Assembly (NCBI GenBank): GCA_964392245.1
Contig: CAYMOX010000024.1
Coordinates: 1 to 40,000, forward strand
Length of the DNA stretch: 40,000 nucleotides
Origin: an uncultured bacterium
GTDB taxonomy: Bacteria; Cyanobacteriota; Cyanobacteriia; Thermostichales; Thermostichaceae
Direction of reading: 5' to 3'
The notes beneath the pieces are model-generated. The model had not been told where the DNA came from. It saw only the letters and a program-made list of their open reading frames with translations, and made no database searches. The translations under genes were made by a program, and so were the position numbers. This document shows, piece after piece, positions 9,099 through 32,097 of this stretch (position 1 is its first letter; each line of letters opens with the position of its first letter).

Positions 9099-10229
9099 AT
9101 GTCCAGGATCCGAATTAACGACACCACACTCAGAGATGGGGAACAGGCTGCAGGGGTGGCCTTTCAACTCCAGGAAAAAGTTGCCATCGCAACGCTACTG
9201 GATGAAATAGGAGTGCCAGAGATTGAAGTGGGCATCCCCGCTATGGGAGATGTGGAAGTCGAAGCGATCCAGGCGATCCTCAATCTGGGACTCAACGCAG
9301 ATCTACTGGGATGGAATCGTGCCGTCCGCTCGGATCTAGTAGCCTCTTTACGGTCTGGATTGCAACGAGTCCATATCTCTGTACCTGTGTCCACGATTCA
9401 GATTGCCACTAAATTTAAAGGCAATCCCCGACAGATGATGCAGCAATTGCAGGAGAGCATTGAGTTTGCCCTTGATCATGGGTTGTGGGTTTCGGTCGGG
9501 GGAGAGGATTCTACCCGTGCAGATCCACTCTTTCTGGTGGAAATTGCCCTCATGGCCCAGGAACTTGGAGCTTCTCGGTTTCGCTATTGTGATACGGTCG
9601 GGATCTTAGATCCTTTCAGGACGTATGAACAGGTCCGTCATTTGGTGCAGAGCCTACAAATTCCGGTAGAGATGCACACCCATGATGACTTGGGAATGGC
9701 CACTGCCAATGCACTAGCAGGTCTACGGGCTGGGGCAACGTCTGTCAACACTACCGTGAATGGTTTAGGGGAACGGGCAGGTAACGCTCCCCTCGAGGAG
9801 ATCATTATGTCTTTAAAAATGATTGAGGGCATTGATCTGGGGATTGATACTCACCGCTTGCGGGAACTCTCACTTGAAGTTGCAAAGGCCTCTGGGAGTT
9901 CGCTCCCACCCTGGAAGGCGATTGTGGGTGACAATAGTTTTGCCCATGAATCAGGGATCCATACGGCTGGAGTCCTACGAGATCCCAGAACTTACGAACC
10001 GTTTAGTCCAGAAGAAGTAGGGGCCACCCGCCACTTCGTGATCGGCAAGCATTCGGGTCGAAATTTATTAAAGGAACTTCTGCAAGACCACTCAACCCCA
10101 CCAGATACAGGCGAACACATGGCGATCCTGCAGAAAGTCCGCCTAGCAGCGATGCAAAAGAAACGGGGTGTTACTGTCGAAGAACTAAAACAACTGATCA
10201 ATCAGGAGGATCTAAGCTATGCGAGTTGA
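9099..10229 (+). CDS. nifV: Homocitrate synthase NifV
   Basis: HMGL-like N-terminus RINDTTLRDGEQ. ATG 9099 follows SD AAGGAGA (9087-9093). The ORF-track start at 9078 is a TTG. Confidence 0.85.
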   Translation: MSRIRINDTTLRDGEQAAGVAFQLQEKVAIATLLDEIGVPEIEVGIPAMGDVEVEAIQAILNLGLNADLLGWNRAVRSDLVASLRSGLQRVHISVPVSTIQIATKFKGNPRQMMQQLQESIEFALDHGLWVSVGGEDSTRADPLFLVEIALMAQELGASRFRYCDTVGILDPFRTYEQVRHLVQSLQIPVEMHTHDDLGMATANALAGLRAGATSVNTTVNGLGERAGNAPLEEIIMSLKMIEGIDLGIDTHRLRELSLEVAKASGSSLPPWKAIVGDNSFAHESGIHTAGVLRDPRTYEPFSPEEVGATRHFVIGKHSGRNLLKELLQDHSTPPDTGEHMAILQKVRLAAMQKKRGVTVEELKQLINQEDLSYAS

Positions 10230-10365
10230 AATCGAATCTTTACATCTTCACAGTCAAGCTATCTTGCGTACAGTACATCAAGAATCATTGTCACGCATGC
10301 GTGGGTTGACCACCAGAGAGATCTTACATCTACTAAAAAATGGGGTTAGTCATGATGGCATCTGA
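10219..10365 (+). CDS. Hypothetical 48-aa small ORF bridging nifV and nifZ (unverified)
   Basis: ATG 10219 sits 8 nt after a strong SD, AGGAGGA (10204-10210). It translates to MRVEIESLHLHSQAILRTVHQESLSRMRGLTTREILHLLKNGVSHDGI, with stop TGA at 10363-10365. It overlaps the nifV 3' end and the nifZ 5' end and is below the ORF-track length cut-off. I recognise no homology. Confidence 0.2.
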   Translation: MRVEIESLHLHSQAILRTVHQESLSRMRGLTTREILHLLKNGVSHDGI

Positions 10366-10824: not shown

Positions 10825-10841
10825 AATGCTGCTTCAGATCT

Positions 10842-12671
10842 TCACCTGCTGATCACACCTTGTCCTCGCATTCTTTCAGCAAGCCAGGGACCAACCACCT
10901 CACCCTTCTGGGGTCTGGAAAGAAAATAACCTTGAGCCATTTCACAGCCAATGATCTTTAAGATCTCCTGTTGGGCTGCTGACTCTACTCCTTCTGCCAC
11001 AACGCTGATCCGCAGGCTATGAGCCATCGCGACAATCGCGCGCACGATCTCCAGCTTCTCCGTTTCCTCCTCAATGCCTTTGACAAATGACCGATCGATC
11101 TTGAGGGTACTGACCGGAAAGCGGTGCAAGTGGCTGAGGGAAGAGTAACCAGTACCAAAATCATCCAGGCAGATCTGGATCTGAAGCTCTTGAAGTTTCT
11201 GCAGCAGTTGTTGAGCCGTTTCCACCTGGGCAAACAGGGCAGTTTCAGTCACTTCCAACTTCACCTGAGTCCCCTCAAGCTGGAATTCTCTTAAGGTTTG
11301 GTGAATAAAGTCCAGCAAATTGGCTTGTAACAGCTGGCGTGGAGACAAATTGATATTCATAAACAGGGATTGGTGCTGATCCCAGGTGAGTTGCCAGGAT
11401 CGTAATTGCCGACAGGCTTCTCGAAAAACCCATTGGCCCATCGGTATGATTAAGCCAGTCTCTTCCGCCAGCAGAATAAAATCGCCGGGAGAGATCATTC
11501 CCCGTTCCGGATGCTTCCATCGGATCAGGGCTTCAACCCCCACGGGTCGGTTCATGGGCAGGTCTATAATCGGTTGATAGTGGAGGACAAATTCCTGCCG
11601 TTCCAGGGCAAGCCGGAGATCGGTCTCCATCAGATGTTCCTGCAGAACCTGAAAATGCATTTGGGCTTCAAAGATCTGATAGCATCCTCTCCCACGGTGC
11701 TTGGCTTGATACATGGCGGTGTCAGCATCTCTTAATAAGGCTTCTGGTTGGCCATAGCCACGACTAAGCACAATGCCCATACTGAGGTTGATGTAAATCT
11801 GCTGTCGTTCAATCTGAAAAGGCTGTTGAAAAGCCTGGACCACCGATTCGGCAAACCGGGTGATCTCCTGAATCTCCTGCACCTGATCCACAACGATCAG
11901 GAACTCATCTCCTCCCAGACGACCCAAGGTACTGTTCGGGCTCTGTTGCAGGCAGGATGTTAGTCTTTCAGAAACGGCAATCAAGAGCTGATCTCCCATC
12001 CAATGCCCCAGGGAGTCGTTGATCACTTTAAATCGATCACAATCAATAAAGAGAAGCGCAAATTCAACATCCGGGTTTTGAGCAGAGCGCGTCAGGTAAG
12101 TTTGCAATTGCTCAAAAATATATCGGCGGTTGGGTAGGCGGGTGAGGCTATCGTGATTGGCCTGATAAACCAGTTGATCCTGAGCTTGTCGCCTCTCTTC
12201 AATTTCCCGCTGCAGTTCCAGGGTTCTTTGCCGTACCCGCTCCTCAAGACGTTGGTTCATCTCCTGCAACTCCTGATGCAACTGTCGCAGTTGTAAATGA
12301 TTGCGCACCCGGGCGATCACCTCCTCCATCTGGAAGGGTTTGGTAATGTAGTCCACAGCCCCCAGGCTTAACCCCTTCACTTTGTCAGCAATTTCCGTCA
12401 AAGAAGTTGTAAAGATCACAGGAATCTCCTGCAACTGAGCATCGGATTTGAGTCGGCGGCAGGTCTCAAAGCCATCCATGTCCGGCATCATGACATCCAG
12501 AAGAATCAGATCGGGACGGGCATAGGCTGCTTGCTCCAGGGCACTCCTGCCATCCAGGGCTACCAGCACCTCTGCTCCAGCATCCTCCAGAGTGCAGGAG
12601 AGAACCTCCAGATTCGCAGGCAGATCATCAACAATCAGAATGACACTGGGGGGAAGAGTAAGGGGATTCAT
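10842..12671 (-). CDS. Response regulator with REC, coiled-coil, GGDEF and EAL domains (c-di-GMP turnover)
   Basis: REC (ILIVDD...[13 protein letters not shown]), GGDEF ([10 protein letters not shown]), EAL ([17 protein letters not shown]). The ATG overlaps the upstream kinase stop (ATGA at 12668-12671). Confidence 0.9.
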
Positions 12672-15426
12672 GGGTGTTGCAAACCTCGCTGGATCAACTC
12701 CCGGATCGGCTGTAGTCGAAAACCCCGGGCCAGTTCCTGCACCTTGCCTGCAAAGGGAAGCAGATCAGGATCCTCGATCGCCAAACGCTCCATCCGTCTG
12801 GAGATTTCCCGCAAATTGCCCCGCAATGCCAGATCTAAAAGGACTTCGAGCGTAGATGAATCAGGATAGCTCCATTCCTCAGAAGTCAAGGCCCAGGGGA
12901 TCGAATGCTCCAGGGTCGGTTTTGTAACTGAAGACTGTTCGCCCCCAGAATCATAGATCCAATGCAGATCCAGCAGCCGATAGAGTTGAAACAGAAGTTC
13001 TTCTCGCTGAACAGGTTTGGGCAAAAAATCATCCCCCCCCGCTTTGAGGCTCAAACGTTGATCCTTCTCAGACACACTGGCGGAAGAAACCAGGATCTTC
13101 ACGTCCTCCCCCCCCAGGGTGCTCCGAATCTGGGTGATCAACTCATAGCCATCCATGTTGGGCATTACCAGATCAGTAATCACCAGATCGACTGTCTGAT
13201 GGTGACCAGAGTCATCCACTTGATTCCAGAGTTGCAGAGCTTCCAGGCCATCGGCAGCTTCTACAATCGAGAATCCCAGAGGTTGTAGCATTTCTCGCAG
13301 TACAGAACGATTTTCCCAGCGATCATCAACCACCAGGATGCAGCGTTGCGGTCCCTCATAGCCAATGATCAAACGGCCATCCAAACCAGCGGCTAGTCCT
13401 TTTTCATCGAGAACCTCTGGTAAGGTCAGATCAAACCAGAAACGGCTACCTTGGCCAGGAGTACTTTCCACCTGAATCTGACTATCCATCAATTCGGCCA
13501 ATCGCTGACTGATCGCTAGACCCAGTCCAGTTCCCTGGGAACGCAGCCGCTGATCCCCTAACTGTTCAAAAGGTTGAAAGATCTGTTCCACCTGTTCCGG
13601 CTGCATGCCGATCCCCGTATCCACCACCTCAAGCCGTAGACAACGATTCCCTTCTCTGGCGGATAACGTTTCAACTTGCAAAGAGACCTGTCCGTGATGC
13701 GTAAACTTAATGGCATTGCCCAGTAAATTCACTAGGATCTGGCGCAGACGTTTTTCATCCCCATACACCCGCAGGGGCAGATCGGAGGGCACCTCTAAAT
13801 GAAATTCAAGCCCCTTTTGCTCGGCTCGCAGAGTGCACATCTCCGCCACTCCCCGCAGAAACGCTGGCAGGTGAAAATCTTGAGGGGTCAGTTCCAGTCG
13901 ACGGGCCTCGATCTTTGAAAGATCCAGAACATCTTCGATCAGGGTGAGCAAATGATGCCCCGATTGATAGATGATGTCGATCCCCCGCAGATCTCCCTCC
14001 TTCAGACTCTGGGAACGCTCCAGGATCTGGGCATAGCCCAGGATGGCGTTGAGAGGGGTACGCAGTTCGTGACTCATATTAGCTAAAAACTCACTTTTGG
14101 CCTGATTGGCCACATCTGCAGCTTCTTTTGCCGCTTTCAATTCCTGCGTTCGTTCAGCCACCCGTTGTTCCAGCACCGCAAAGGATCCTCGCAGTTGTTG
14201 GGCCATGCGGTTAAAGGATTGGGCCAGGGTCCTCAGCTCACGGATCCGCTTGACTTCCACCTGTTGATTTAGTTCCCCGGCAGCAATGGCACTGGCGGCC
14301 CGACTCAATCTCCAGATCGGTTGCAGAATCAAGTTTGACGTGTATAAACCCATCAGCAGCGCCAGGATCAGCGCCCCCAGACAGAGCAAAATTGTGTTTC
14401 GGGTATTGGCATTGATCTGAGCTAAAAAGTCTGTTTCCGGTACAACAACAGCAATCAACCAGTCCAGCCCAAAGTTATCTCGGTAGGGCACCACCTGCAG
14501 AAACTGCCGCTCTCCCAGAAGGGTAAATTCCAGTTGATGCTGATCGTGAATCCCCTCCAGCCCCTGGGAACTTTCCACTAAAGTCCGAGCAGCTGCCTGA
14601 ATTAAAGGATCTGGGCTGTTAATGGCCTCAAGGCGTTGATTGTCTGGGGTAAAGGGCTGAGAACCCGAGCTGGCCACCAGCAAGCCATTGCGCTCCAGAA
14701 TAAAGGTACGGCCCTGTTGACCCACCTGCAGGGTATCTAGAAACTCAGTAATCGTCGGTAGGGTCAGATCTGCTGCAATCACCCCTTGTAATGTCCCCTC
14801 TGCATCAAAATAGGGCTGTCCGAAAGTGATCCCCAAAGCGGGAGGAGCCAGATAAGAATAAATCTCGGTCCATGTTGGTTTGCCAGCTTCCACGACTGTC
14901 TGGTACCATCCCCGTTGCCGAGGATCATAATGATCAATTTGCTCCAGATAAGTCTGGGGCCGTCCCTGATCATCCAGGCGATACTGAATAGCAGCGCCGT
15001 CCGTAAACGCATCCTTGATGTGAAAGACAAAAGATCCGTCCTCTCGTTCATCACCCCCACAAATTCAGCTGTTTCGGTCCCCGCCGAGAGATAAGCGGTC
15101 CCATCAAAAATCTGGATCTGCCGCCAGAAGTGAGGTAGCCAGTCCCGCACCTGATCAAGATCTAAATGCCCCACCTCCAGTGCCGACTGATTCACCTGAT
15201 TGACCAGGTTGGGGGTTCCCATGTACATATCCAATTCCTGGTGAATGCGATTACTGATCTCCGTCTGCAATTGACCCACCAGATCCCGCACTGTCTGCCG
15301 ACCATTCCAATAGGAGAGGCCAATTGTGATCCCCTCCACCACCAGGAGTTGAACGATAAACGGTGCCACCAGAATCAGCCGCAGGGGCCACTGCTGAGAG
15401 CTTGACTCAGAGGAGGATGCGGACAT
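12668..15426 (-). pseudogene. Hybrid sensor histidine kinase (TM-Cache-TM-HAMP-HisKA-HATPase-REC-C-terminal helical domain) interrupted by a 1-nt frameshift
   Basis: Two overlapping ORFs (15426->14779 and 14893->12668) encode the N- and C-terminal parts of one Cache-domain kinase. The H-box is SHELRTPLN, the G-box is GTGLGLAIS, and the REC domain contains [12 protein letters not shown]. The downstream frame is already open from 15064 and reads [63 protein letters not shown]. Adding one G to the minus-strand G5 run (plus-strand C5, 15054-15058) fuses the frames as ...[15 protein letters not shown].... Confidence 0.8.
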
Positions 15427-15553
15427 TGAAATGATTTATACAGGGCTGCTCCTATGCTATGCCTCTACCCCGCTACCTTGGTTTAAACGAAACTTAAGGT
15501 CCCTTTATCTTTTTGGGGATGGAGGCTGAAATTCAGATGATCTCTGCAGGAGG

Positions 15554-15844
15554 CTACGGTTCCAGATAATCCAGCACTTGAACTTTAGGTTGATCCAGAG
15601 CCTGAAACATGGCAGCAGTCATCTCGATCCGTGCCAACTGTCCCAGTGCTCGACTGCAGGGAAACCCAAACTTAGCCTGGACTCGCTCACTGGCAATCTG
15701 CAGGGCCTCCCGCGCACGCCCCACAAACTCCGCAAGATCATAGTCATCTCCAGGGGTGAAGTACTGTTTGATCACCAGGGAAGGGGAATAGCAGGTCTCT
15801 TCTGAGCCATCTGGCCAGCGGATGCGGAAACAAATTTCAGGCAT
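15554..15844 (-). CDS. MSMEG_0570-family small protein of the Nit1C / nitrogen-starvation cluster
   Basis: 96-aa ORF (MPEICFRIRWPDGSEETCYSPSLVIKQYF...) at the distal end of the cluster. The ATG overlaps the glycosyltransferase stop by 8 nt. The family call rests on my recall of this conserved cluster. Confidence 0.75.
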   Translation of the reverse strand: MPEICFRIRWPDGSEETCYSPSLVIKQYFTPGDDYDLAEFVGRAREALQIASERVQAKFGFPCSRALGQLARIEMTAAMFQALDQPKVQVLDYLEP

Positions 15845-17024
15845 GGTGCATTTCCCTCAGGTGAGATCTGGATTGTAGAGTATGGTACTGCTGCTGCTGC
15901 AGTTGAGCCGATCGCTCCCAGGTGTAGTGGCGGATCACCTCCTGGCTGGCGGAGATCAAAGAACCTGCAACCTCAGGCACAATCAATTTCCGCATCGCCC
16001 CGGAAAGAGCAGAAACCTCCAGGGGATCCACCAGCAGCGCTTGATCGGGAGTCAGAAATTCGGTAAATGGCTCAATCCCCGATGTGAGCACAGGCAACCC
16101 TGCCGCCATCGCCTCCATCACCACCAATCCCCACCCTTCCTGGATCGACGGAAATACAAATCCATCCGCAGCATGGTAAAGAGCCACCAGCTCAGCATCC
16201 GTAACCACCCCAGTCAGGATCAGGGATTGGCCCAGCCGCATCTGCAGCTCCTCACAGGTGGCAAAAAATTGCTCTCGGTAGGCTGCGTAATCAAACAGCG
16301 TCATTCCCCCGGCGATCACCAGTTGAGCTTGCGGGTCAGTGGAAAGAACCTGATGAAAAGCCTGTAGAAGACGAATGGAATTTTTGCGAGGTTCAATCCC
16401 ACCCACGGTCAGATAAATAGGATCCCCGCTTAACCCATACTTCTGCTTGAGACTGGCAACTGCCTGGGGATCACAATCTTGAAATCGTTCTCTACAGATC
16501 CCATTCCACACCTGTGTTGACGATCTGCCGTACTCCCGCAACAGTTGTTCCTGTCCCTCACGACTGACACAAAAGCAGTGATCCACCTCCATCACCGAGC
16601 GCCGCTGACATTCCTGCAAAAAAGGACTGGTGAAGGGATCCAGATGATGCACTGTCCTGACGATCCATCCCTTCCCCATAGGACTCTGGGGAGCTTCCTG
16701 CCGCAGTCGCACCAAAGCATTGGCACTGATACAGTCCTGAGCATGGTAAATCTCAAAAGGTTGGGGATATTCACGAAAAAACTCCACATAGTCCTGGATG
16801 CGCTGCTGGATCAGCATTTCGGTGCCTGCGGGTGCGGGTTGGGTAGGGACCAGCTTCCATGCACACTTGAGGGGCCGACAAAACGCTTGTCCCCCTTTAT
16901 CCAGAGCGAAAATACAGATCTCATGACCCAGTTGATGCAAAGCCTCCGACAATTCCATGGCATGGATCACGCCTCCCCGTGGATGGGTGGAGTAGGTGAG
17001 CATCGCAATTCGCAACGGGGCCAT
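15837..17024 (-). CDS. GT4-type glycosyltransferase (MSMEG_0565 family) of the Nit1C cluster
   Basis: The C-terminal motif EGWGLVVMEAMAAGLPVL is typical of GT-B/GT4 enzymes. ATG 17024 (MAPLRIAMLTYSTHPRGG) overlaps the upstream stop (TAATG). The ORF-track start at 17072 lies inside the preceding gene. Confidence 0.85.
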   Translation of the reverse strand: MAPLRIAMLTYSTHPRGGVIHAMELSEALHQLGHEICIFALDKGGQAFCRPLKCAWKLVPTQPAPAGTEMLIQQRIQDYVEFFREYPQPFEIYHAQDCISANALVRLRQEAPQSPMGKGWIVRTVHHLDPFTSPFLQECQRRSVMEVDHCFCVSREGQEQLLREYGRSSTQVWNGICRERFQDCDPQAVASLKQKYGLSGDPIYLTVGGIEPRKNSIRLLQAFHQVLSTDPQAQLVIAGGMTLFDYAAYREQFFATCEELQMRLGQSLILTGVVTDAELVALYHAADGFVFPSIQEGWGLVVMEAMAAGLPVLTSGIEPFTEFLTPDQALLVDPLEVSALSGAMRKLIVPEVAGSLISASQEVIRHYTWERSAQLQQQQYHTLQSRSHLREMHHA

Positions 17025-17971
17025 TAAGGAATTCCTCCCCAGCCCGTCAGAGGATCCTGGCCCAGATCCCAAAACAGTAGGGATTCATCGCCGGACGTGA
17101 GGTGGAGCTGGCCATCAGCGGTCAACCAGCCGATCTCACCACACCAGATCTTGTGGGACTGAAAGAGATCCTTCACTTCTGTAGCTAACGCAGGGGCAAC
17201 GCTGAAAAGAAAACCGAAACTGGGGAAACAGGTGAGCCACTCCTCAAGCGCAAAATCTACCGGACAGGGAATCTGATCCAGCTCCAGAACTGCTCCACAT
17301 TGGGAGGTTTCCAGCAACATCAAAGTTGTTCCCAGGATCCCGCCCATGCTGATGTCTTTACCCGCGTGACAGAGACCCCGCTCCGCCAGGGTAGGCAAAA
17401 GATTGAGCTTCTGGCGCAGTTCCCCAGGATCCGCCTGAGTGGCTGCATTCCAGAAGCCATAGAGAGGATGGCGTTGCCCCTGCAAATCCACGGCCAGCAG
17501 CACTTGATCCCCGGGTTGGGCAGCGAAACTACTGATCAGATGGGACGCCCGGCCTAAAATCGCCACGGCTAAGGCCTGATAAGGACTCTGGGCATTGGTG
17601 TGCCCTCCCACAATGGGAACCTGATAAGCCGCCGCCGCCGCCTGCATCCCCGCCCATAGTTCCGTTTGAGAGTCCAGGCAACCACTCCAGATCACATCCA
17701 CCAAAGCCAGAGGCCGTCCCCCCATTGCGTAAATATCACTGACATTCACCATGACAGCGCACCAGCCCGCAAACCAGGGATCGGTATCCACGAGCGTGGG
17801 CCACATACCTTCCGCCGCCAGCAACAGGTAACCATCCCCATCCGGAATTGCGGCACAATCATCCCCCAGCAAAGGGGCTGAAGATCCCAGTCGCTGCGCC
17901 ACCCGCTGAATATCTTGCTTCTGTCGGATCCCCAGGGAATGCCGTAGATCCTGGATCCGCTGCCAGTCCAT
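17024..17971 (-). CDS. AIR synthase-like (PurM/ThiL/HypE superfamily) protein, Sll0787 family
   Basis: N-terminal GDDCAAIPDG motif and a PurM-like fold pattern. ATG 17971 overlaps the GNAT stop (TGATG). The ORF-track start at 17974 is a GTG. Confidence 0.85.
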   Translation of the reverse strand: MDWQRIQDLRHSLGIRQKQDIQRVAQRLGSSAPLLGDDCAAIPDGDGYLLLAAEGMWPTLVDTDPWFAGWCAVMVNVSDIYAMGGRPLALVDVIWSGCLDSQTELWAGMQAAAAAYQVPIVGGHTNAQSPYQALAVAILGRASHLISSFAAQPGDQVLLAVDLQGQRHPLYGFWNAATQADPGELRQKLNLLPTLAERGLCHAGKDISMGGILGTTLMLLETSQCGAVLELDQIPCPVDFALEEWLTCFPSFGFLFSVAPALATEVKDLFQSHKIWCGEIGWLTADGQLHLTSGDESLLFWDLGQDPLTGWGGIP

Positions 17972-18480
17972 CACGATACCTCAGCCCACTCCAGCATCGG
18001 TCGAGGTTGGATCTCAGGCGGATAGGCGGCCAGGTTGGCCTGCATAAGATGGTGCGGACGATCCAGAAGACGGATCTCCGAAAGGGTCTGCCAGTGAAGT
18101 CGTCGGAAGAAACGCACATTTTGCAGCTGAACTGTGGCCAGGAACTGTTTGCACCCCCAGCCGTGAGCAGTGGTGACCGCTTTATGGATCAGTCCCTTCC
18201 CAATCTGGCCCTGTCTCCGAAAGTCAGGATGCACCCCCAGCCGACCGCCGTACCAGATCCCAGGTTCAGTTTCATAGATGCGCACCACCCCTACCACCTG
18301 CACTGCTTTCCTGTCATCCAACTGAAGGGCCACAATTGGATAGGCCACGGGATCCCATCCATCCCGATCCGTCTCGGCAAAAAGCCCTTGCTCTTCACAA
18401 AAGATCTGGAACCGGAGATCGTAGTAGGCCCGCACCTGAGCTGGGGTGGTGGCCAGCATAAATGAGAAAGCGTCTTTCAT
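17971..18480 (-). CDS. GNAT N-acetyltransferase (Sll0786 / MSMEG_0567 family)
   Basis: 169 aa with the GNAT core GGRLGVHPDFRRQGQIGKGLI. It occupies the conserved position in the Nit1C cluster. Confidence 0.85.
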   Translation of the reverse strand: MKDAFSFMLATTPAQVRAYYDLRFQIFCEEQGLFAETDRDGWDPVAYPIVALQLDDRKAVQVVGVVRIYETEPGIWYGGRLGVHPDFRRQGQIGKGLIHKAVTTAHGWGCKQFLATVQLQNVRFFRRLHWQTLSEIRLLDRPHHLMQANLAAYPPEIQPRPMLEWAEVS

Positions 18481-18514
18481 AGCATTAAATCTCGGTTAAT
18501 GGGTTGATGCGAGA

Positions 18515-19612
18515 TCAAACAGCAACCCGTTCAAACTGGGACAGGGCTGAACAGGCTCCACATTTGGCACATCCCGCCTTCATGGCTGCTGAGGTCATCC
18601 CATACTTCTGCAGGAGCTGCCCAATCTGCTGATAGAGACCCAACATGAACTGACTATCGGGAGCAGGATGATGGGCCAGGGGGGTTCCCATCAGAGGTAC
18701 AAACGGCACCACAAACGGATAAACTCCCATCCGGATCAGGCTCTCACTGGTGGAGACAAGCACCTCCTGGCTATCCCCCAGTCCGGCCAGCAAATAGGTG
18801 CTCACCTGTCCCCAGCCGAAGATGTCTACTGCCCGTGCAAAGGCTTCAAAGTAGGTTTCCACATCCACAGCAGCCTTACCGGGCATGATCCGCTGCCGCA
18901 CCTCGGCTGAGACGGCCTCCAGATGCATCCCCAGGCTATCCACTCCTGCATTTTTCATCCGTTCTAACCAGATCAGGTCTGCAGGCGGTTCACATTGAGC
19001 TTGAATGGGCAGATCCACCTCCTGTTTTACCGCTCGGGCACATTCAGCCAGATAGGCAGCGCCCCGATCCGAGGTTTGGGGTGTGCCTGTGGTCATGATC
19101 ATGTGGGTGACACCATCCAACCTCACAGCCGCCGCCGCCACCTCGGCTAATTGAGCTGGAGTTTTGCGAGCAATTGTGCGGCCTGCCTCCAGAGACTGCC
19201 CAATGGCACAGAACTGACAGGCGGTGGCCCGATCCGTGTAGCGCATACAGGTTTGCAAGACCGTGGTGGCCAGCACGTTATGGCTGTGCAGGAGAGCAAT
19301 CTTCCAGTAGGGGATCCCCTCAGAGGTGCTCAGTCCATAGAATCTCGGCACATTTGGGAATTCTACAGCGGTCAGAGGTTCCCCATTGTGAGTTAGGAGA
19401 TGGGCATGCGAGTCGGGTTCAGAAGTCACCTGATAGGGGGAAGTGGCGGCGGCATCTGTATAGATGGGCACCATGATCGTTGTCCCCTGGATCGTGACAG
19501 CCTTGTGATCCGAGGGTCCGGCCCCTCCCTTTCGTCCTGCAGAACCGTGGGCAGGATCCACCAGGCGCAGGCCCTGAGTCTGTAAATCGGTGATCAGTTG
19601 CTGGGCATTCAT
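18515..19612 (-). CDS. Radical SAM protein (MSMEG_0568 family) of the Nit1C cluster
   Basis: Cys triad CMRYTDRATACQFC (CX9CX2C) plus C-terminal CAKCGAC. ATG 19612 (MNAQQLITDL) lies 4 nt after the nitrilase stop. The ORF-track start at 19720 overlaps the nitrilase. Confidence 0.82.
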   Translation of the reverse strand: MNAQQLITDLQTQGLRLVDPAHGSAGRKGGAGPSDHKAVTIQGTTIMVPIYTDAAATSPYQVTSEPDSHAHLLTHNGEPLTAVEFPNVPRFYGLSTSEGIPYWKIALLHSHNVLATTVLQTCMRYTDRATACQFCAIGQSLEAGRTIARKTPAQLAEVAAAAVRLDGVTHMIMTTGTPQTSDRGAAYLAECARAVKQEVDLPIQAQCEPPADLIWLERMKNAGVDSLGMHLEAVSAEVRQRIMPGKAAVDVETYFEAFARAVDIFGWGQVSTYLLAGLGDSQEVLVSTSESLIRMGVYPFVVPFVPLMGTPLAHHPAPDSQFMLGLYQQIGQLLQKYGMTSAAMKAGCAKCGACSALSQFERVAV

Positions 19613-19616
19613 AGAG

Positions 19617-20624
19617 TTAGATGGGTTCAACTGCGGCAATCGCATCGGGTTCAGCAGCCTGTCCGTTGTGGAATGCGGGGATCTTGGGAGAATCAAGGGG
19701 GGCAGCGAGAGGACGGGCATCCTGATTAAGCCTCAACTGCAGAAGATCCGGGCGAGCATAATGGCCGACAGAGTCCATCATGCGTTTCCGTTTGATGATC
19801 AGGCTCAAATCCAGATCCGCCACGGCCAGGCCTTCTCCTTCGGTTACAGGGGGGCAGAGATGGTTTCCTTCGGGACTGATAATGGCGGTGTTACATCCTC
19901 CACTCAGAACCCGCTGTAACTTCTCATCCTGAGTGATCTGATTCACCTGCTCCGGGGAGAGCCAGCTGGTGGCATTGACGACAAAACATCCAGACTCCAG
20001 CGCGTGATGGCGAATCGTCACCTCGATCTGATCTGCAAAAATCTGTCCCACCATCGATCCTGGGAATTGCGCACAGTGGATCTGCTCCCGTTGCTCCATC
20101 AGGGCAAAGCGGGCCAGCGGATTGTAATGTTCCCAGCAAGCGAGTGCACCCACCCGACCCACAGCCGTCTCCACCACCTTGAGCCCGGATCCATCCCCCT
20201 GACCCCAGACCATACGCTCGTGGTAAGTAGGAGTGATCTTGCGCCGTTTTAGCAGCAAAGTCCCATCAGCATCAAAGATCAGCTGCGTGTTGTAGAGGGA
20301 GCCTCCATCCACCTCGTTGATCCCCAGTACCACCACCATCCCGTGAGACCGCGCAGTCTGTCCAACCGCCTCGACCTCTGGCCCGGGAACCGTCACAGCC
20401 TCTTCGTAGAGTCGGAGATGCTCCTTGCCCATGGCCACCGGGGGTTGCACAAAAGAGAAGTAAGGGTAGTAGGGGATCAGGGTTTCGGGAAAGACAATCA
20501 GCTGAATACCGTCCTGGGCAGCACTGGCAATCGTCTCCAGCACTTTTGACGTGGTGCCCTCACGGCTAAAAAGCACAGGACTGATCTGGGCTGCTGCTAC
20601 CTTGATCCGAGCGGAAGTGGTCAT
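19617..20624 (-). CDS. Nitrilase, Nit1C (Nit6803) clade
   Basis: Carbon-nitrogen hydrolase triad contexts [10 protein letters not shown] (Glu), [10 protein letters not shown] (Lys) and [11 protein letters not shown] (Cys). Confidence 0.92.
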
Positions 20625-20655
20625 GTTCTCAGATCCTTGGGTTCAACTTCATTCC

Positions 20656-21138
20656 CTACAACGTCCAGGTATCCAGGATCAGTGCTCCCTCCTTCCGATG
20701 GATTAACACTAGATCCAGAACATCCAGGGGATTGATGGGTCGGATACCGGGGAGAAGAGCCGGTTCACCATGGCCGTAAAGAGCCTGCAGAGCAAAACGA
20801 CAGGCGTAGACCTTGCCCCCTTCGTTCATAAAGCGGGTGAGATTGTTGGCAAAGTTCTGGTGACCAGGAAAGGCTTCATCCCCAATTTTGGGAAACCCCC
20901 GTTGCACCCCCAACGTCACCCCTGGACCGTAGAGCAGGATAGAGGTCTCAAAGCCTTTCTTGAGCAGCCGCAACCCCTGCAGGATATTCACCAAGCCAAT
21001 CGATCCTTCAAAAGCAACCGTATGGAAGGTGACCAGAGCTTTTTCACCGGGTTCGGCTTTCACATCAGGGAAAACTTTTTCTTCGTAGTCAACAAAAAAA
21101 TCCCCCGTTTGATAGGCAGGAGCGGTTACTGCGGGCAT
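20656..21138 (-). CDS. Sll0783 / MSMEG_0572-family nitrogen-starvation response protein (first gene of the Nit1C operon)
   Basis: The ORF is open up to a GTG at 21174. ATG 21138 is preferred because GAGGA (21150->21146) lies 7 nt upstream. The sequence [22 protein letters not shown]...[22 protein letters not shown] fits the conserved leader gene of this cluster as I recall it. Confidence 0.78.
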
Positions 21139-21190
21139 GAATTCATCCTCGTAAAAATGGTTCTGATCGGTCACAACAAGCTTGAACGAC

Positions 21191-21232
21191 AGAATAGAAG
21201 TGCCCTTTCACTTTTCTTGTATCAACCGCCAC
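21191..21232 (-). promoter_or_regulatory. Candidate NtcA-type (class II) promoter for the Nit1C operon
   Basis: Minus strand: GTG-N8-TAC (21232->21219, 5 of 6 consensus positions), then exactly 22 nt, then TATTCT (21196->21191, TAN3T). This lies just upstream of the first cluster gene. Confidence 0.4.
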
Positions 21233-21497
21233 CATTTCTTCTTCTTTAGCAGAATCAGCAGAACACTAAATCAGCTAAAGGATGAACTCCAGCTTTTGTC
21301 ATGATCAACCTGTCGAAAGTGATAGGTAAACCCCTGCCTTGCCAGCCCTCGCCAGACATCTCCAGGAGGTTGCGGGAAGTCAATCGATCGATCAAGGAAG
21401 GATTCATCCCTAAATTGACAGTCCACCCCAGTTTTTTTGTGGCTGCTGATAGATAGGATCCTGTTTGCCTAACTAAACGATCAATCCTAAAGAATCC

Positions 21498-21539
21498 GTA
21501 TCAAGAACTACATAAGATCAACTTTTTAGTCGATAGGTT
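21498..21539 (+). promoter_or_regulatory. Candidate NtcA-type (class II) promoter for the flavin oxidoreductase gene
   Basis: Perfect GTA-N8-TAC (GTATCAAGAACTAC, 21498-21511), then exactly 22 nt, then TAGGTT (21534-21539, TAN3T). The ATG is at 21567. Confidence 0.5.
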
Positions 21540-21566
21540 GAGGCAAAGATTTCGAGAGTAGCGGAA

Positions 21567-22838
21567 ATGCAAAACCATCGGGGCGTGATCATTGTGGGGG
21601 GCGGACAGGCAGGGTTGGCCATGAGCTACTGCTTGAAAGAACGGGGAATTGATCATCTGATCTTTGAAAAGAACAAAATTGGCCATGCCTGGGAGAATGA
21701 GCGCTGGGATTCCTTTTGCCTGGTCACCCCCAACTGGCAATGCTGTCTGCCGGGGTTTCCCTACGCGGGTCCCGATCCGCAGGGCTTCATGAAAAAGGAT
21801 GAGATCGTTGAGTACATCCAGGCTTATGCTCGCTTTGTGGATCCCTCGATTCAGGAAGGGGTGGCCGTGGAGAAGTTAACTCGCCACGAAGACGGGGACT
21901 TTGTTCTGGAAACTTCCTCAGGCACCTACACCGCCAATCAGGTGGTGATCGCGACGGGAGGCTACCATCAACCCCGCATCCCTCGTTTTGCCGAACGTCT
22001 GCCCAGCTCCATTCATCAGATCCATTCCAGTCAGTACAAAAATCCAGAATCCCTCCCTGATGGGGATGTGATGGTGGTGGGCACCGGACAGTCGGGCTGT
22101 CAGATTGCCGAGGATCTGCACCTGGCTGGTCGGCAGGTTCACCTGAGTGTGGGCAGTGCCCCCCGAGCCCCTCGGCGGTATCGCGGCAAAGATGTGGTGG
22201 ACTGGCTAGATATGATGGGCTACTACGATCTGCCCATTGATCAGCATCCTCAAAAAGAACAGGTGCGTCACAAAACCAATCACTATGTCACCGGTCGCGA
22301 TGGGGGCCATGAAATTGATCTGCGCCATTTTGCCCTGGAAGGTATGAAGTTATATGGCCGTCTGGAAAGCATTGAAGATCCCCACATGACGATGCAGCCC
22401 AACCTGAAGCAAAATCTGGATCAGGCGGATGCGGTTGCTGAGAGCATTAAAAAGACCATCGATGGGTTTATTGTTAAGCATCAAATCGAGGCCCCCACTG
22501 AACCTGCCTATCAACCCGTTTGGGAACCGTCAGAGGAGATCCTGCAGCTCAATTTCCGTGAGGCAGGCATTGCTTCTGTGATCTGGTGTACCTCTTTCAG
22601 CACCAACTACCGCTGGGTTCATATTCCCGTGTTTGATGGCACAGGCTATCCCAGTCATGAGCGCGGGGTCTCTTCCGTCAGCGGTCTCTACTTTCTGGGG
22701 CTGCCCTGGCTTTACACTTGGGGATCAGGTCGTTTCTCAGGTGTGGCACGGGATGCTCAATACCTAGCGGACTACATTGTTACGCGGGAACGCCTCCGCT
22801 CCGCGACAGTCTTGAATACCGCTGTCCTGGGATCTTAA
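21567..22838 (+). CDS. Flavin-dependent oxidoreductase (MSMEG_0569 family), divergent member of the Nit1C cluster
   Basis: N-terminal dinucleotide fold VIIVGGGQAGLAMSYCL and a second GxGxxG (VVGTGQSGCQIAEDL), typical of FMO/BVMO-like flavoproteins. Confidence 0.85.
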   Translation: MQNHRGVIIVGGGQAGLAMSYCLKERGIDHLIFEKNKIGHAWENERWDSFCLVTPNWQCCLPGFPYAGPDPQGFMKKDEIVEYIQAYARFVDPSIQEGVAVEKLTRHEDGDFVLETSSGTYTANQVVIATGGYHQPRIPRFAERLPSSIHQIHSSQYKNPESLPDGDVMVVGTGQSGCQIAEDLHLAGRQVHLSVGSAPRAPRRYRGKDVVDWLDMMGYYDLPIDQHPQKEQVRHKTNHYVTGRDGGHEIDLRHFALEGMKLYGRLESIEDPHMTMQPNLKQNLDQADAVAESIKKTIDGFIVKHQIEAPTEPAYQPVWEPSEEILQLNFREAGIASVIWCTSFSTNYRWVHIPVFDGTGYPSHERGVSSVSGLYFLGLPWLYTWGSGRFSGVARDAQYLADYIVTRERLRSATVLNTAVLGS

Positions 22839-24372: not shown

Positions 24373-27300
24373 ATGGTTGAACCTCTGGCCATCGTCGGGA
24401 TGGGATGTCGATTTCCTGGTGGTGTAGATTCTCCTCAATCGTTCTGGCAACTGCTCAAGCACCGTGTTGATGCCATTACTGAGATCCCTCCTGCACGCTG
24501 GGACGCAGAGGCTTTTTATGATCCAGATCCTGGGGCCCCTGGCAAGAGCATCAGTCGTTGGGGAGGGTTTCTACAGGGAATCGATCTTTTTGATCCTCAG
24601 TTTTTCCAGATTAATCCACGAGAAGCCGAGGAGATGGATCCGCAGCAAAGGTTACTGCTAGAAGTCACCTGGGAAGCATTTGAGAATGCAGCCATTCCCC
24701 CTGACAGTCTGCAGACAAAGTCAGTCGGTGTGTTTGTCGGTGCGGCCCATCAAGACTACTACCGACTAAGGATCCAAGCTCAAAATCGAGAAACATTAAC
24801 GGGATACTCCTACACAGGTGGACGCGCAAGCTTAATCGCTGGACGGATCTCATATTTTTTTGGCTTTCATGGCCCAGCCTATGTTGTGGATACAGCCTGT
24901 TCGTCATCTCTGGTAGCTTTGCATAACGGGTGTCAATCACTCAGGAACCATGAGATCGACGTTGCTGTTGTAGGTGGCGTCAACATCATTCTGGATCCGC
25001 AGGTATCAATCCTGGCTTCTAAATTGGGAACTCAATCACCGGATGGAAGGTGCAAAGCCTTTGATGCCCAAGCTAATGGATTTGTTCGCTCCGAAGGTTG
25101 TGGGGTTGTGATTGTCAAAAGATTAAATGATGCAGTTCAAGAGCAGGATCAGATCCTGGCAGTCGTGTATGGGTCAGGCGTTAATCAGGATGGGAGAAGT
25201 GAGTGCTTAACAGCCCCAGATTCTTCAGCTCAGCAGAGACTGATGCATCAAGTGTTGAAAGCCAGTGAGCTGCAATCGGATCAGATCACTTATGTCGAAG
25301 CCCATGGAACTGGAACACCTGTAGGCGATCCTATCGAATTTAATTCCATTTTAAAAGTATTAAGGCCAGATCGTTCGGGTTGCCAGTCTCCGCTGATCAT
25401 TGGATCAGTAAAGACAAATATCGGCCATTGTGAAGCCGCAAGTGGAATGGCATCAATCATCAAAACCATTTTGGCCTTACAGAATCGATCTATCCCAGCA
25501 AATCTTCATTTTCATAGACTTAATCCTAAGATCAAGCGATCAGACTCTGCAATCATTCCTAACCAGGAAACCATCTGGAAAGCAGAGGGAAGTGGACGAT
25601 ATGCTCTGATTAATGCTTTCGGCATAAGTGGCACAAATGCATGTTTAGTCATCGGAGAACCTGATCAGATCACAAGCAATAGAACTCAGTTGGATACACT
25701 TCCTCCTGATCCTGAGGTGTTGAAACTTATAATCTCAGCCAGGACAGAGAAAGATCTGCGATCTCTAGCCCAAAGATACATCCTATTTCTACAACACACC
25801 CAAGAAAACTTGAGAGACATCTGTTATACGGCACTTTCTGGAAGAACCCAATTCCCTCACAGCTTGAGTTTCACAGGTGATAGTAAAGACCAGTTACGCA
25901 AAAAAATCCAGAACTATTTAGAGAAAGACGAGAAAGATCCTCACACACAAGAAATTGACTCTATATCCAAAGATCCAAAATGGACTAATCAAAGGAAAGT
26001 AGAACTACCGACCTATCCATTTGATCGGCAAAGATACTGGTCTGACTATGTGCTGATCCATTGCTCTCATGAGGTTACGAAACCTGAAAACTTAGATCAT
26101 CCTCTACTTAATATCAAGAGTTTGGATAAGTCTGACAATCAAGAAGCCTATAACATAGAATTCAATACTCCTGATCTTAGCTATCTTCAAGATCACAAGA
26201 TTGAAGACAGGATCATCTTTCCAGCGGCTGGATATATCGAGATTCTTCTAGCGATAATGGCTAGGAAACAGAATACGGCAATAGAACCCCCAATCAAAAT
26301 AACCAACCTCTATCTACCTGCTTCACTACCACTCAAAGATAAACAAAATATTCAAGTCATCATCTCAGATCAATCAAACCACTTTAGAGCAGAAATTTTC
26401 AGCCATGATGGCAGCAACAAGATTTGCCACGCTTCAGCACAGCTTCATAGAGCATATACTCAAGACAATACTCTTGATCCTATATCAATCCAGAAACATC
26501 TTCAGACATACCATGAAAAGATCTCTGCAGAAGACTATTACAACCAATTAAGTCAGACTTTTCTTCGCTATGAACCTCTATTCCAGGGAATACGTGAAAT
26601 ATGGCTAGATCAAGGCAAGACATTTGCACAAATTCAATTACCTGAGCCTCTTCGATCTGATCACGCCAAATACTACTTTCATCCAGTTCTCCTGGACAGT
26701 TGTTTACAAGCCTCTAGATTACTCAGCCAGAATCTTCCTACACCTTCTCCGATTCTTCCGGTTTATTTCGAGGAGATCATTCTTTACCAATCGCCTGGAG
26801 AACAGATCTGGTGCTTAGCGCAAACCTCACCTCATATCCAGAGTAACCAAAGACAGCCCAATGAGTACACGATTGATCTGGATATATTTAATCCTGAAGG
26901 TGATCTTATTGCCAGAATTAAAGGGGTAAGAAGGCAAGCAAGTATTCAAACTAACAATCAAGGCTCCAGAGCACCCCAGTATTTTCAGATTCAATGGCAC
27001 AAGGATGAGATCAACAAAAAAATAACAGATGAGTGTATCAAAAAACAGTTCACTGGGTCCACCATTGTCTTTCTGGCCTCGGATCAGTGTTTGCTTCTAG
27101 AAACATTTATAGAGGCCCTTAAGGTGGCGTGTTCCAATCTGATTCTTATCAATAATGGATCGGAGTTCAAAAAGCTATCGAGTTGTATTTATCAGATCAA
27201 TCCTATAGAAACAACCAATTATGAGCATCTTTTTTCATTGATCAATAAAGACTTTCCGGAAATCACCCGGATTATCTACTCCACAGATCTAGACTATCGA

Positions 27301-30300
27301 GGAACAAAAACAACAGGGAAATCCATAGAAGAATTAACCGAATATGCTTGCCTAAGCCTTCTAACTCTAATTCAAGCCCTAGTAAAAAATCAAGTTCATA
27401 CTTTAGATCTGTGGTTGGTTAGCTGGGGCAGTCAGAGTATTAAGGACCATTGGCGTCCAATCCATATAACCTCATCACCCCTATGGGCACTGGGTAGAGT
27501 CATTCGCTCTGAGCATCCAGAGTTTAATTGTCGTCAGATCGATCTTGATCCCTGGGATATCAGATCTGCCAAACACTTTCTAACTGAACTACTCAGCAAT
27601 GACCGAGAAGAAGAGATTGTATGGCGGAATCAAACACGATGGGTACCTAGGCTCATTCAGGTCAATTTAGATTCAACTATCGATCAAGAAGAAAGGCTGA
27701 TTATACCCAATTCAAACCAACCCTTCAGCCTGGAAATTGGCACACGAGGACTGCTCAATAGTCTTCAATATCACCCACTCCAGCAGGATACACCAGGATC
27801 AGGACAGGTAGAAGTCAAGGTGATCGCTGCCGGACTAAATTTTAGAGATGTATTAAACGCTTTGGGAACCTACAACGGAGACCTGGGACCGATCGGTGGC
27901 GAATTTGCAGGCTATGTGATCAATGTTGGGCCAGATGTGACCACTCAATGGCTTGGAAAAAGAGTCATGGGATTGGCAACCGGATCCTTTGCCTCTCATG
28001 TGATTACCAGCCAGGAGTGGATAATTGAGATCCCTTCACTTTTGAGATTTATAGAAGCAGCAACGTTGCCGATCAATTTTCTTACTGCTTATCATGCACT
28101 CATCAAAGTCTCTAATCTACAGGCAGGACAACTGATCTTAATTCACTCAGCCACGGGAGGAGTTGGATTAGCAGCAATACAAATAGCTCAAGCTGCGGGT
28201 GCTCAGATCTTGGCAACAGCTGGTTCAGATGAAAAAAGAGCTTATTTAAGATCCCTTGGTATCCAGCATGTCATGAATTCCCGAACTTTAGACTTTGTCC
28301 AAGAAACGCTGGAGATCACGGAAGGGGAAGGAGTAGATGTTGTGCTTAATTCCTTGATCGGTGAATCTTTATATGGAAGCCTAAAATTACTCAGGCCAGG
28401 AGGAATATTTATTGAGATTGGCAATAAAGAGATCCTGTCTCAGGAATATCTAGCAAATTATTTCCCAGGAATAAAATATTATCCTTTTCACTTAGGGCAA
28501 TATCGAGAATCGCATCCTCAAGAGATCCAGAAAATGTTTCAAATTCTTTTGGATCAACTTAATCGCGAAGAATTCAGGATTGTTTCTTATCAAGTTTATC
28601 CCGCCACAGATGCCATTCCTATGTTTCGCAAGATGCAGAGAGCGGAGCATATTGGTAAGCTTGTCCTAAAGATCGGAGATCGGTCTGAGTCAGAACTGAT
28701 TAGTCCAGACGGTACATATCTGGTGACAGGGGGACTAGGTGGCATAGGGATCAAGTTAATCCAATGGTTGGCAAAAAAAGGTGCGAAATTCATAGTAATT
28801 CTCACTAGAGATGTCTTTAATCAGGAAAAACAATCTTCACTTGATGCCATAAACCAGCTCAGAGAAATGGGTATTGACATTGAGATCAAACCCACTGATG
28901 TTTCGGTCTTTGAGGATCTCCAAAAAATAGTGGAGTGGATCCAGAGGAATCGACCCCCACTTCGAGGAGTTTTTCATGCTGCAGGTGAGCTTCAGGACAG
29001 CTTACTGATCAATCTAACCTCGGAACAATTCACCCACGGGCTGGCTGCGAAAGTAAAGGGTACATGGAATTTACACCATCTAACCAGAGAGATTTCCCTG
29101 GATCACTTTGTCCTGTTTTCCTCGATTACAGCAATAACCGCATCACCTGGGCGGGGAGTGTATGCTGCAGCGAATCAATTTCTCGATTCATTTGCTCATT
29201 ATAGAACACAGATAGGTTTACCCTGTCTATCGATCAACTGGGGAGCCTGGGATGGGATCGGAATGGCTAGAAAAATGAGCAACCATCCTGCCTCTCCACA
29301 AATTCAAGATCCTATTGATCCAGATCATGCTATCGAATCTCTTGAAAAACTGCTCGGCCATCAGATTACTCAAATAGGTGTATTTAACATTAATCGATCC
29401 CTGCTCTCACAAATATTTCAGAGCAGGAGAACTCCAGGAATCTTTGAATTGCTTCAGAATAAATCTTCAGATCAGACTAATCCCCTATCTAGCCCCGAAA
29501 TCCAGGTAGAATCAAACAGCTTTGCAGACTATAACGATCCTCTCGCACAAAAAATACAAAAAGGTCTGGAAAAGCTCCTTGGCTTACGAGATCCTGAGCA
29601 GCTTGATGTAGATGTAACCCTGGATCACTATGGTCTTGACTCCCTGATGAAAGTTGAATTGAGAAATTGGATCTCTCAGGCTTTTAAGGTTACCTTGCCA
29701 GCCCACTTTCTGATCAATCCGTTTACATTTTCTGACTTGTATAAATTTCTGGTAGATGATAAACGAGGATCAGCATCTGATTCCAGATCCGATTTCTCTC
29801 GTCACTCTGATAGAGCTTCGATTGCGACACCGATTCAATCAGCTCAGTCTGCTTTTGATCATCTTCACTCTCGACTGCAGAACCTGAAAAACCTGAACCT
29901 GGATCGCCAACCTATTCATCACCTCGGTTATCACGGATCACTTCTAAGACTTAATCAGCGCTGGCTGATCAACTTTTCCAGTAATGACTATCTGGGTCTT
30001 TCTCAAGAGCCGGAGATTAAAGCCGCAGCCATAGAAACTATAAACAACTGGGGTGCAGGAAGCGGAGCCTCTCGATTAGTCACAGGCAGCCTTGAGTTAC
30101 ATCATCAACTGGAAGTAACGATTGCCGAATGGAAGAAATCTGAAGCATCTGTACTCTTTAATTCCGGGTATCAGGCCAATCAAGGGATTTTCTCAGGACT
30201 ATGCCAGCAGGGAGATCAGATCTTTTTTGATTCACTTGTTCATGCGTCTATTCGAGATGGCATGATCCTTTCCAGCGCAAAGTCTTTTGAATTCCATCAT

Positions 30301-31002
30301 AATGATCTCAACCATCTGGAAACACTTCTACAATCACATTCTGGTTCTGGACTGAGAATTATCATTACAGAGAGTGTCTTTTCGATGGATGGGGATCTGG
30401 CCCCACTGCAACAACTTCTCCATCTAGCCGAAACCTATGACTGTCTATTGATCATTGATGAGGCACATGCTGTGGGAGTATTTGGACCAAAAGGAGCAGG
30501 TCGTTGTGCAGAGTTCAAGATCAACTCCCCTCGTCTAATTCAGATTGGTACCTGTGGAAAAGCATTGGGGAGTTTTGGTGCCTATATCGCCTGTGCCGAC
30601 GTCATTGCTCAGCTTCTTTTTTCCCGCGCCAGAAGCCTGATCTATACAACAGCTCTCCCACCTGCAGTTTTAGCAGCCACACAAGCAGCAATCAACTTTA
30701 TCCAAAACCATCCTGAACGTCAGTCTCAACTTCACAGGAATCTATCTTACCTGCGAGAACTTTCTCATCAATCGGTGATCAGTCAAATCCATCCAATCAT
30801 TTTGGGTGAAGAGACTCTCGTTCTAGACGCCTCACAAGATCTCATAAAACAGGGCCTCTGGGTCCAGGCGATCAGACCCCCAACGGTTCCAGTGGGCAGT
30901 GCGCGACTTCGCATTTCCCTCACAGCTCTCCATACCCAGGACCAGATCTCAACTTTGTGGAAGCATCTGCAACCCTGGATCTCCTCCTCCCCGCATCACT
31001 AA
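24373..31002 (+). CDS. Type I polyketide synthase (KS-linker without AT-DH-psiKR-ER-KR-ACP) fused to a C-terminal BioF-like 8-amino-7-oxononanoate synthase domain
   Basis: Domain coordinates are approximate.
- KS, 24379-25656: DTAC Cys176 (TGT at 24898-24900), HGTGT, NIGH.
- Linker, 25663-26040: ends in [12 protein letters not shown]. There is no GHSxG motif anywhere in the protein.
- DH, 26095-26937: His608, LLDSCLQ.
- ER, 27724-28677: [11 protein letters not shown].
- KR, 28708-29262: [18 protein letters not shown].
- ACP, 29536-29757: GLDSL.
- AONS, 29905-31002: [50 protein letters not shown].
- No thioesterase domain is present. Confidence 0.92.
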
Positions 31003-32015: not shown

Positions 32016-32097
32016 CAAGCAGCAGCTAGAGTATCACATAACTGCTGAGCGGATATAGGGATGCACAATCCGTATCACTTGGCGGATCCTTAGCTTT

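Follow-up and report, generated by a model that had tools for sequence, protein, structure and literature searches.

The Nit1C gene cluster was defined in 2005 through the comparative genomics of nitrilases as a set of seven genes, with a glycosyltransferase gene inserted between ORF5 and ORF6 in the beta-proteobacteria Burkholderia and Rubrivivax (PMC1199592). In Mycobacterium smegmatis, the corresponding gpr cluster comprises eight open reading frames (ORFs), is induced more than 500-fold by GlnR upon nitrogen starvation, provides resistance to peroxide and increases NADPH (PMC6039565). A Synechocystis mutant in sll0783 shows no NADPH/NADP rise under nitrogen starvation and does not accumulate polyhydroxybutyrate (PMC3901256). 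Cyanotrophy in Pseudomonas depends on the Nit1C versions found there (PMC7815647, PMC11049912), which are linked to growth on cyanide via a cyanohydrin hydrolysed by the nitrilase NitC (PMC11049912); the purified Pseudomonas nitrilase used cyanide poorly and its best substrates modestly, and its physiological role was called unclear (PMC7815647). Marine picocyanobacteria carry the genes as nitHBCDEFG in low-nitrogen waters (PMC10119275, PMC9716671). Our literature search found no paper defining the Nit1C metabolite. Here, we analyzed a Nit1C cluster located near a nif operon in a stretch of 40,000 nucleotides (the window; contig CAYMOX010000024.1 of GenBank assembly GCA_964392245.1) from an uncultured cyanobacterium of the Thermostichaceae. 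The best overall explanation for this locus is probably that of an NtcA-activated nitrogen-starvation cluster whose adjacency to nif is incidental.

Family calls were based on the NCBIfam/TIGRFAM models TIGR04042-TIGR04049 with their curated cut-offs, and all eight ORFs scored above these (Table 1). Given that the E-values of the eight matches in the profile search were between 1e-38 and 1e-207, chance matches are excluded, and we consider it virtually certain that 15554-22838 is a Nit1C cluster with the layout nitH <> nitB-nitC-nitD-nitE-nitF-GT-nitG, where GT is the glycosyltransferase gene. The original prediction, made from the DNA letters before any database search, had proposed a complete eight-gene set and named the models by number; the numbering was correct, every ORF was placed in its family, and the gene order, the divergent flavoprotein gene and all six junctions were found in the minus-strand sequence as claimed. 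Its account of the literature also held, namely the origin of the cluster in nitrilase comparative genomics (PMC1199592), the nitrogen-starvation induction of the Synechocystis version (PMC5714215), the link to cyanide assimilation in Pseudomonas (PMC7815647, PMC11049912) and the lack of a defined small molecule (PMC7815647).

Table 1. Coordinates of the Nit1C genes, their predicted promoters and the neighboring regulatory genes in the window.
Feature	Position	Strand	Assignment or sequence
nitG, MSMEG_0570-family small protein, 96 aa	15554..15844	-	TIGR04042, 131 bits (cut-off 80)
MSMEG_0565-family GT4 glycosyltransferase, 395 aa, optional eighth gene	15837..17024	-	TIGR04047, 460 bits (cut-off 260)
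nitF, sll0787-family AIR-synthase-like protein (PurM superfamily), 315 aa	17024..17971	-	TIGR04049, 437 bits (cut-off 321)
nitE, MSMEG_0567/Sll0786-family GNAT acyltransferase, 169 aa	17971..18480	-	TIGR04045, 234 bits (cut-off 68)
nitD, MSMEG_0568-family radical SAM enzyme, 365 aa	18515..19612	-	TIGR04043, 592 bits (cut-off 304)
nitC, Nit6803-type (subfamily 1) nitrilase, 335 aa	19617..20624	-	TIGR04048, 572 bits (cut-off 503)
nitB, Sll0783/MSMEG_0572 family, 160 aa, first gene of the operon	20656..21138	-	TIGR04044, 280 bits (cut-off 110)
Predicted NtcA-activated promoter of the nitB operon	21191..21232	-	GTGGCGGTTGATAC (21232-21219), 22 nt, TATTCT (21196-21191)
Predicted NtcA-activated promoter of nitH	21498..21539	+	GTATCAAGAACTAC (21498-21511), 22 nt, TAGGTT (21534-21539)
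nitH, MSMEG_0569-family FMO-like flavin-dependent oxidoreductase, 423 aa, divergent	21567..22838	+	TIGR04046, 688 bits (cut-off 498)
GAF + GerE (LuxR-type) transcription regulator, 459 aa	22848..24227	-	Pfam GAF_2, GerE
REC-GGDEF-EAL response regulator	10842..12671	-	Pfam; GGDEF, EALIR and DDFGTG motifs intact
Hybrid histidine kinase, dCache-HAMP-HisKA-HATPase-REC	12668..15426	-	Pfam; frame broken near 15052

Reading the minus strand from nitB to nitG, gaps of 31 (nitB/nitC), 4 and 34 nt are followed by a TGATG that joins the GNAT stop to the nitF start, a TAATG between nitF and the glycosyltransferase gene, and an 8-nt overlap between the latter and nitG. Four genes begin within their longest ORFs and not at the ORF ends (starts 21138, 19612, 17971 and 17024), and the nitB start ATG at 21138 has GAGGA ahead of it. 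The junctions are thus translationally coupled. The cluster is intact and probably functional, and it is an ordinary member of an already known, curated family; homologues of the AIR-synthase-like (AIRS-like) protein alone numbered more than 6,600 at E <= 1e-40. For comparison with other loci, a genome-contig scan with the GT4 protein as query recovered one true orthologue, in the metagenome-assembled genome 'Synechococcaceae cyanobacterium SM2_3_1' (locus L001), along with 79 generic GT4 genes, and a metagenome scan with a 37-sequence AIRS-like alignment recovered at least about 24 true Nit1C loci, most of which were distant and often short. Among the matches listed, about 15 of 25 Nit1C loci had a glycosyltransferase gene between nitF and nitG, making the form found in the window the commoner one in this sample.

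Two putative promoters of the canonical NtcA-type class II form, one per transcription unit, were found in the 428-bp intergenic region from which nitH and nitB diverge. The nitH box is a perfect GTAN8TAC, the only intergenic one of four such sites in the 40 kb. In each of the eight cyanobacterial loci examined, the Sll0783 gene was preceded by an NtcA box, a spacer of 22-23 nt and a TAN3T -10 element, while a box of the nitB type was found upstream of the Sll0783 homologue in none of nine more distant metagenome loci. The nitH-side box was kept in every examined cyanobacterial locus with the flavoprotein gene, whether divergent or co-directional. A scan for sigma-70 promoters and terminators gave no excess over shuffled sequences. 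In Synechocystis, the sll0783 promoter is NtcA-bound and active under nitrogen starvation, and chromatin immunoprecipitation (ChIP) sequencing revealed two overlapping NtcA peaks at the sll0783 bidirectional promoter (PMC5714215). The recurrence of paired NtcA-type promoters in 8/8 cyanobacterial loci supports nitrogen-starvation control, and it is quite likely that both transcription units at this locus are under the predicted NtcA control. That such paired promoters accompany every cyanobacterial locus examined is a modest, possibly useful result.

Among the described systems, the window shares with Synechocystis sp. PCC 6803 (sll0783-sll0787) the gene order Sll0783, nitrilase, radical SAM, GNAT and AIRS-like as well as a bidirectional NtcA promoter, indicated by ChIP peaks there (PMC5714215) and by predicted boxes here, but differs in having GT4 between the AIRS-like and MSMEG_0570-like genes and in a host that carries nif genes. 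The M. smegmatis gpr cluster (MSMEG_0565-0572) contains the same eight families, including the MSMEG_0565 glycosyltransferase, and the NCBIfam models are named after its members; however, gene order differs, and its regulator is GlnR (with a SoxR box) in place of the NtcA boxes of the window. Judged by the NCBIfam model names, GNAT and AIRS-like parts are joined in one MSMEG_0567 protein, whereas in the window each is encoded by a gene of its own, the two overlapping by 1 nt. Pseudomonas has homologous nitB-nitH genes in an operon that is ammonium-repressed and tied to nitrogen acquisition (PMC7815647, PMC11049912). In contrast to the window, the Pseudomonas cluster has seven genes, lacks the glycosyltransferase, carries nitH at its 3' end on the same strand, and is regulated by the sigma-54-dependent NitA, where the window has NtcA boxes and a neighboring GAF-LuxR gene. 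The nitHBCDEFG form of picocyanobacteria (Synechococcus, Prochlorococcus and Ca. Regnicoccus) is likewise cyanobacterial, with nitH first, and occurs in low-nitrogen niches (PMC10119275, PMC9716671), but it consists of seven genes in non-diazotrophs with nitH co-directional, as opposed to eight genes with nitH divergent.

By analogy with these systems, exhaustion of combined nitrogen would lead 2-oxoglutarate-activated NtcA to turn on both transcription units. A nitrogen-containing compound would then be routed via a nitrile, and NitC would free ammonium from that nitrile for nitrogen salvage; in cyanide-exposed Pseudomonas, the nitrile is a cyanohydrin. Cluster activity would also raise the NADPH/NADP ratio. 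The best solved relative of NitC is Synechocystis Nit6803 (3WUY; 540 bits, E 1.6e-161), and the catalytic motifs FPE (E47), RRK (K129) and CWE (C163) are all present. NtcA-activated nitrogen salvage of this kind is the model with the best support, but for the nitrile-salvage chemistry itself, we put the chances slightly below even. Nit1C is among the more widespread conserved bacterial clusters of unsolved chemistry, and solving it would matter given that nitrogen starvation turns it on in cyanobacteria, mycobacteria and pseudomonads; the copy in the window is a standard, automatically annotatable instance that brings a solution no nearer than thousands of others, and the nif operon beside it, the single feature that sets it apart, is not conserved there.

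Alternatively, Nit1C could be mainly biosynthetic and produce an N-acylated and, in its eight-gene form, glycosylated small molecule, perhaps redox-active or signalling. The nitrilase would act on an intermediate with a nitrile group, and the freeing of ammonium or the use of cyanide would be side effects. The enzymes are of kinds typical for the assembly of natural products or cofactors, comprising a radical SAM enzyme with an auxiliary cluster motif, a weakly FeeM-like GNAT, an ATP-using PurM-like protein, a GT4 and an FMO-like flavoprotein. NitD of the window has a non-canonical CX9CX2C (C122/C132/C135) and a C-terminal CX2CX2C (C348/C351/C354), both invariant in 18/18 orthologues. NitE weakly resembles two Pfam families, FeeM N-acyl amino acid synthase and Acetyltransf_5, NitH matches Pyr_redox_3, FMO-like and Lys_Orn_oxgnase, and NitF matches AIRS and AIRS_C, its kinship to distant solved relatives (ThiL, PurL, HypE and SelD) fitting an ATP-dependent activation step. 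The small protein NitG, with 55-94% identity to 40 family members, has two invariant cysteines in a 41-sequence alignment, C18 (motif CYSPS) and C63 (motif PC). Also in keeping with biosynthesis, the genes stay together across phyla (PMC1199592; metagenome loci recovered here), the catalytic efficiency of the nitrilase is poor and its investigators propose a biosynthetic metabolon (PMC7815647), and loss of the cluster alters NADPH pools and not nitrogen supply (PMC3901256, PMC6039565). However, no organism is known to make a product of the cluster, growth with cyanide as the only nitrogen source depends on the cluster genetically (PMC11049912), and the cluster is enriched in low-nitrogen ocean regions (PMC10119275). 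Control by three unrelated nitrogen regulators (NtcA, GlnR and the sigma-54-dependent NitA) fits nitrogen acquisition better than biosynthesis. We regard the biosynthetic role as a serious rival, although it is less likely than not.

NitB is 77-99% identical to orthologues at other cyanobacterial loci; its single-sequence AlphaFold model had a predicted local distance difference test score (pLDDT) of 40.6 and was not used. The NitG model reached a pLDDT of 95.6, and in a Foldseek search against the PDB it matched no solved fold. Given that the best hit had only an E-value of 0.38 and a template modelling (TM) score of 0.36, NitG function could not be inferred from it. Sequence searches of the PDB with NitB, NitG and the radical SAM enzyme gave zero solved homologues, and an Rfam scan of the window gave zero matches.

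A role of Nit1C in dedicated detoxification of cyanide or nitriles, shielding metalloenzymes from cyanide made by the cell itself or its neighbors, was the one originally suggested (PMC1199592) and has been kept open for marine picocyanobacteria (PMC10119275), and the Pseudomonas cluster is described as cyanide-induced in a passage citing Jones 2018 (PMC10119275). The conserved promoters are nonetheless of the NtcA type, which denotes a nitrogen signal and not a cyanide signal, and the M. smegmatis cluster is induced by nitrogen starvation without cyanide (PMC6039565), leaving detoxification an unlikely main function.

The nif genes of the window lie on the plus strand in the order nifB, nifS, nifU, nifH, nifD, nifK, nifV, nifZ and nifT. 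As the original prediction had stated, the Nit1C cluster begins about 4.7 kb from their end (nifT ends at 10824, 4729 nt away), with only a two-component cyclic di-GMP (c-di-GMP) pair between, its domains confirmed by Pfam. The idea that this arrangement forms a nitrogen-stress island was not borne out, given that the adjacency was absent in two relatives (L081 and L001) and in all other Nit1C loci examined, and the recurrence of nif next to Nit1C that had been proposed as a check was not found at these loci. L081, a JGI metagenome contig with 90.3% DNA identity over window positions 10849-20264, carries Nit1C, an intact kinase gene and the REC-GGDEF-EAL gene. Its homology to the window ends at the end of the REC-GGDEF-EAL gene, and HTH_5 and short-chain dehydrogenase genes follow where the window has nifT. 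The break (window 10825-10849; L081 9425-9450) is within a few bases of the REC-GGDEF-EAL stop, which itself is only 17 bp from the nifT stop. On the DNA alignment, the junction between regulator and nifT resembles one end of an inserted or deleted segment carrying the nif operon; neither repeats nor mobile-element genes were seen there, and a repeat search around the cluster returned zero mobile-element boundaries.

In L001, the nearest named relative (87.5% identity over window positions 15537-22189), the 9 kb downstream of the small gene are without kinase, regulator and nif, and only a 76-bp remnant of the kinase region was found. Nit1C had no nif gene within 10 kb in Leptolyngbya 'hensonii', Nodosilinea nodulosa, Synechocystis sp. 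PCC 7509, Pseudanabaena sp. PCC 6802, Leptolyngbya sp. SIOISBB, two long contigs (JGI and ENA) and, among the matches listed, about 24 metagenome loci. In the window, the two operons lie on opposite strands, run toward each other and have separate promoters, and no perfect NtcA box was found upstream of nifB or nifH in the 40 kb. Podar et al. had noted that the flanks of Nit1C are not conserved across species (PMC1199592). Given the breaks in synteny in L081 and L001, the absence of nif at other loci and the convergent, separate operons, we attribute the adjacency to local rearrangement, and it is quite likely that it is incidental, the outcome of a lineage-specific event and not a conserved functional unit.

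Both signalling genes share the strand of the Nit1C operon, and the kinase adjoins Nit1C only in the window and in its closest relative, L081. Compared with the intact homologue of L081 (900 aa), the kinase gene of the window lacks one nucleotide near 15052 and is thereby split into two overlapping ORFs, 12668-14893 and 14779-15426 (741 and 215 aa), although all domains are present; it could be a pseudogene or reflect a sequencing error. At the far end of the nif operon, an ORF of 97 aa lies between nifB and nifS (2221-2514, +), which we take to be the position occupied by fdxN in comparable nif operons.

It is very improbable that Nit1C, the c-di-GMP pair and nif constitute a selected, co-regulated island aiding diazotrophy, for example by clearing nitrogenase inhibitors of the cyanide or nitrile type or by providing NADPH. 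In favor of an island, the gene sets adjoin each other, other organisms show a response of both to nitrogen shortage (PMC5714215) and NADPH is lower in Nit1C mutants of two species (PMC3901256, PMC6039565). Yet in addition to the lost junction in L081, the bare flank in L001, the nif-free surroundings of every other examined locus, the convergent operons with separate promoters and the lack of perfect NtcA boxes ahead of nifB and nifH, the kinase between them has a broken reading frame, and non-diazotrophs such as Synechocystis 6803 and marine Synechococcus carry Nit1C (PMC10119275). We give just as little credence to the narrower reading that selection in this one lineage placed Nit1C, the GAF-LuxR gene and the kinase/regulator pair beside nifBSUHDKVZT, in which case Nit1C could serve diazotrophy by clearing cyanide or nitriles that inhibit or compete for nitrogenase, or by raising NADPH.

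Some points weigh against our explanation of an NtcA-activated nitrogen-starvation cluster with incidental nif adjacency. The sample for synteny was small, with about ten cyanobacterial loci taken irrespective of whether their genomes fix nitrogen, and L001 and L081 are short contigs of metagenomic origin in which misassembly at the breakpoints is possible. The NtcA sites are predictions for this organism. Regarding the chemistry, the authors of the study on the purified Pseudomonas nitrilase are doubtful that the function is limited to nitrile hydrolysis (PMC7815647), and simple salvage leaves five accessory enzyme types that are typical of biosynthesis unexplained.

Directly after nitH, the window carries a gene for a GAF-LuxR regulator (Table 1). 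Orthologues with 46-51% identity adjoin Nit1C in Synechocystis sp. PCC 7509, the ENA contig L086 and Pseudanabaena sp. PCC 6802, so that, counting the window, the gene was found beside the cluster in four of eight cyanobacterial loci with a visible flank, in differing orientations; it was absent beside Nit1C in L082, L083, L085 and L170. A homologue in Leptolyngbya KIOST-1 (50% identity) is in an unrelated context, and the family is broader, with 1,063 matches at E <= 1e-30. This gene neighborhood is suggestive of a candidate ninth, regulatory gene of the cluster, although the link is not established; more speculatively, the protein could sense a small molecule specifically for the Nit1C pathway of cyanobacteria. 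If true, its ligand would reveal the long-sought Nit1C metabolite, and the presence of the gene beside the cluster in four distant cyanobacterial lineages would, if real, offer a ligand-binding handle on that compound.

Insertions are tolerated in other cyanobacterial Nit1C operons. A PemK toxin-antitoxin pair is located between the AIRS-like and glycosyltransferase genes in Nodosilinea nodulosa (L083, 11097-11631), an aminotransferase gene on the opposite strand occupies the same position in the ENA contig (L086, 11045-12277), and a SnoaL-like gene lies between the nitrilase and radical SAM genes in L084 (8010-8426). A second possible link to nif, in Oscillatoria sp. FACHB-1407 (L168), was rejected: its NifH-like protein is only 37% identical to NifH of the window, and by gene layout the NifH-like/Oxidored_nitro pair looks like chlL/chlN. 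The same locus has a lone MSMEG_0570/NitG homologue (10001-10288, 66% identity) away from any Nit1C cluster, adjoining cyanophycin synthetase and cyanophycinase genes.

Beyond the GAF-LuxR gene, the window encodes a polyketide synthase (PKS)-like protein of 2209 aa (24373-31002, +) with KS, DH, ER, KR and ACP domains and a C-terminal class I/II aminotransferase domain (BioF-like); no Pfam AT domain match was found in it. Beside it are bioB (30999-32018), a B12-binding radical SAM gene (32098-33729), bioA (33904-35190) and bioD (35201-35866), and its G+C content is about 0.42, compared with about 0.52 in the flanks. From its domains and gene neighbors, the protein may be a megasynthase for the pimeloyl/7-keto-8-aminopelargonate (KAPA) part of biotin; our literature search turned up no account of such a protein. 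A CDF-family cation efflux gene (35888-36586, -) comes next, followed by the ABC-exporter genes devB (36870-38033, +) and devC (38072-39238, +).

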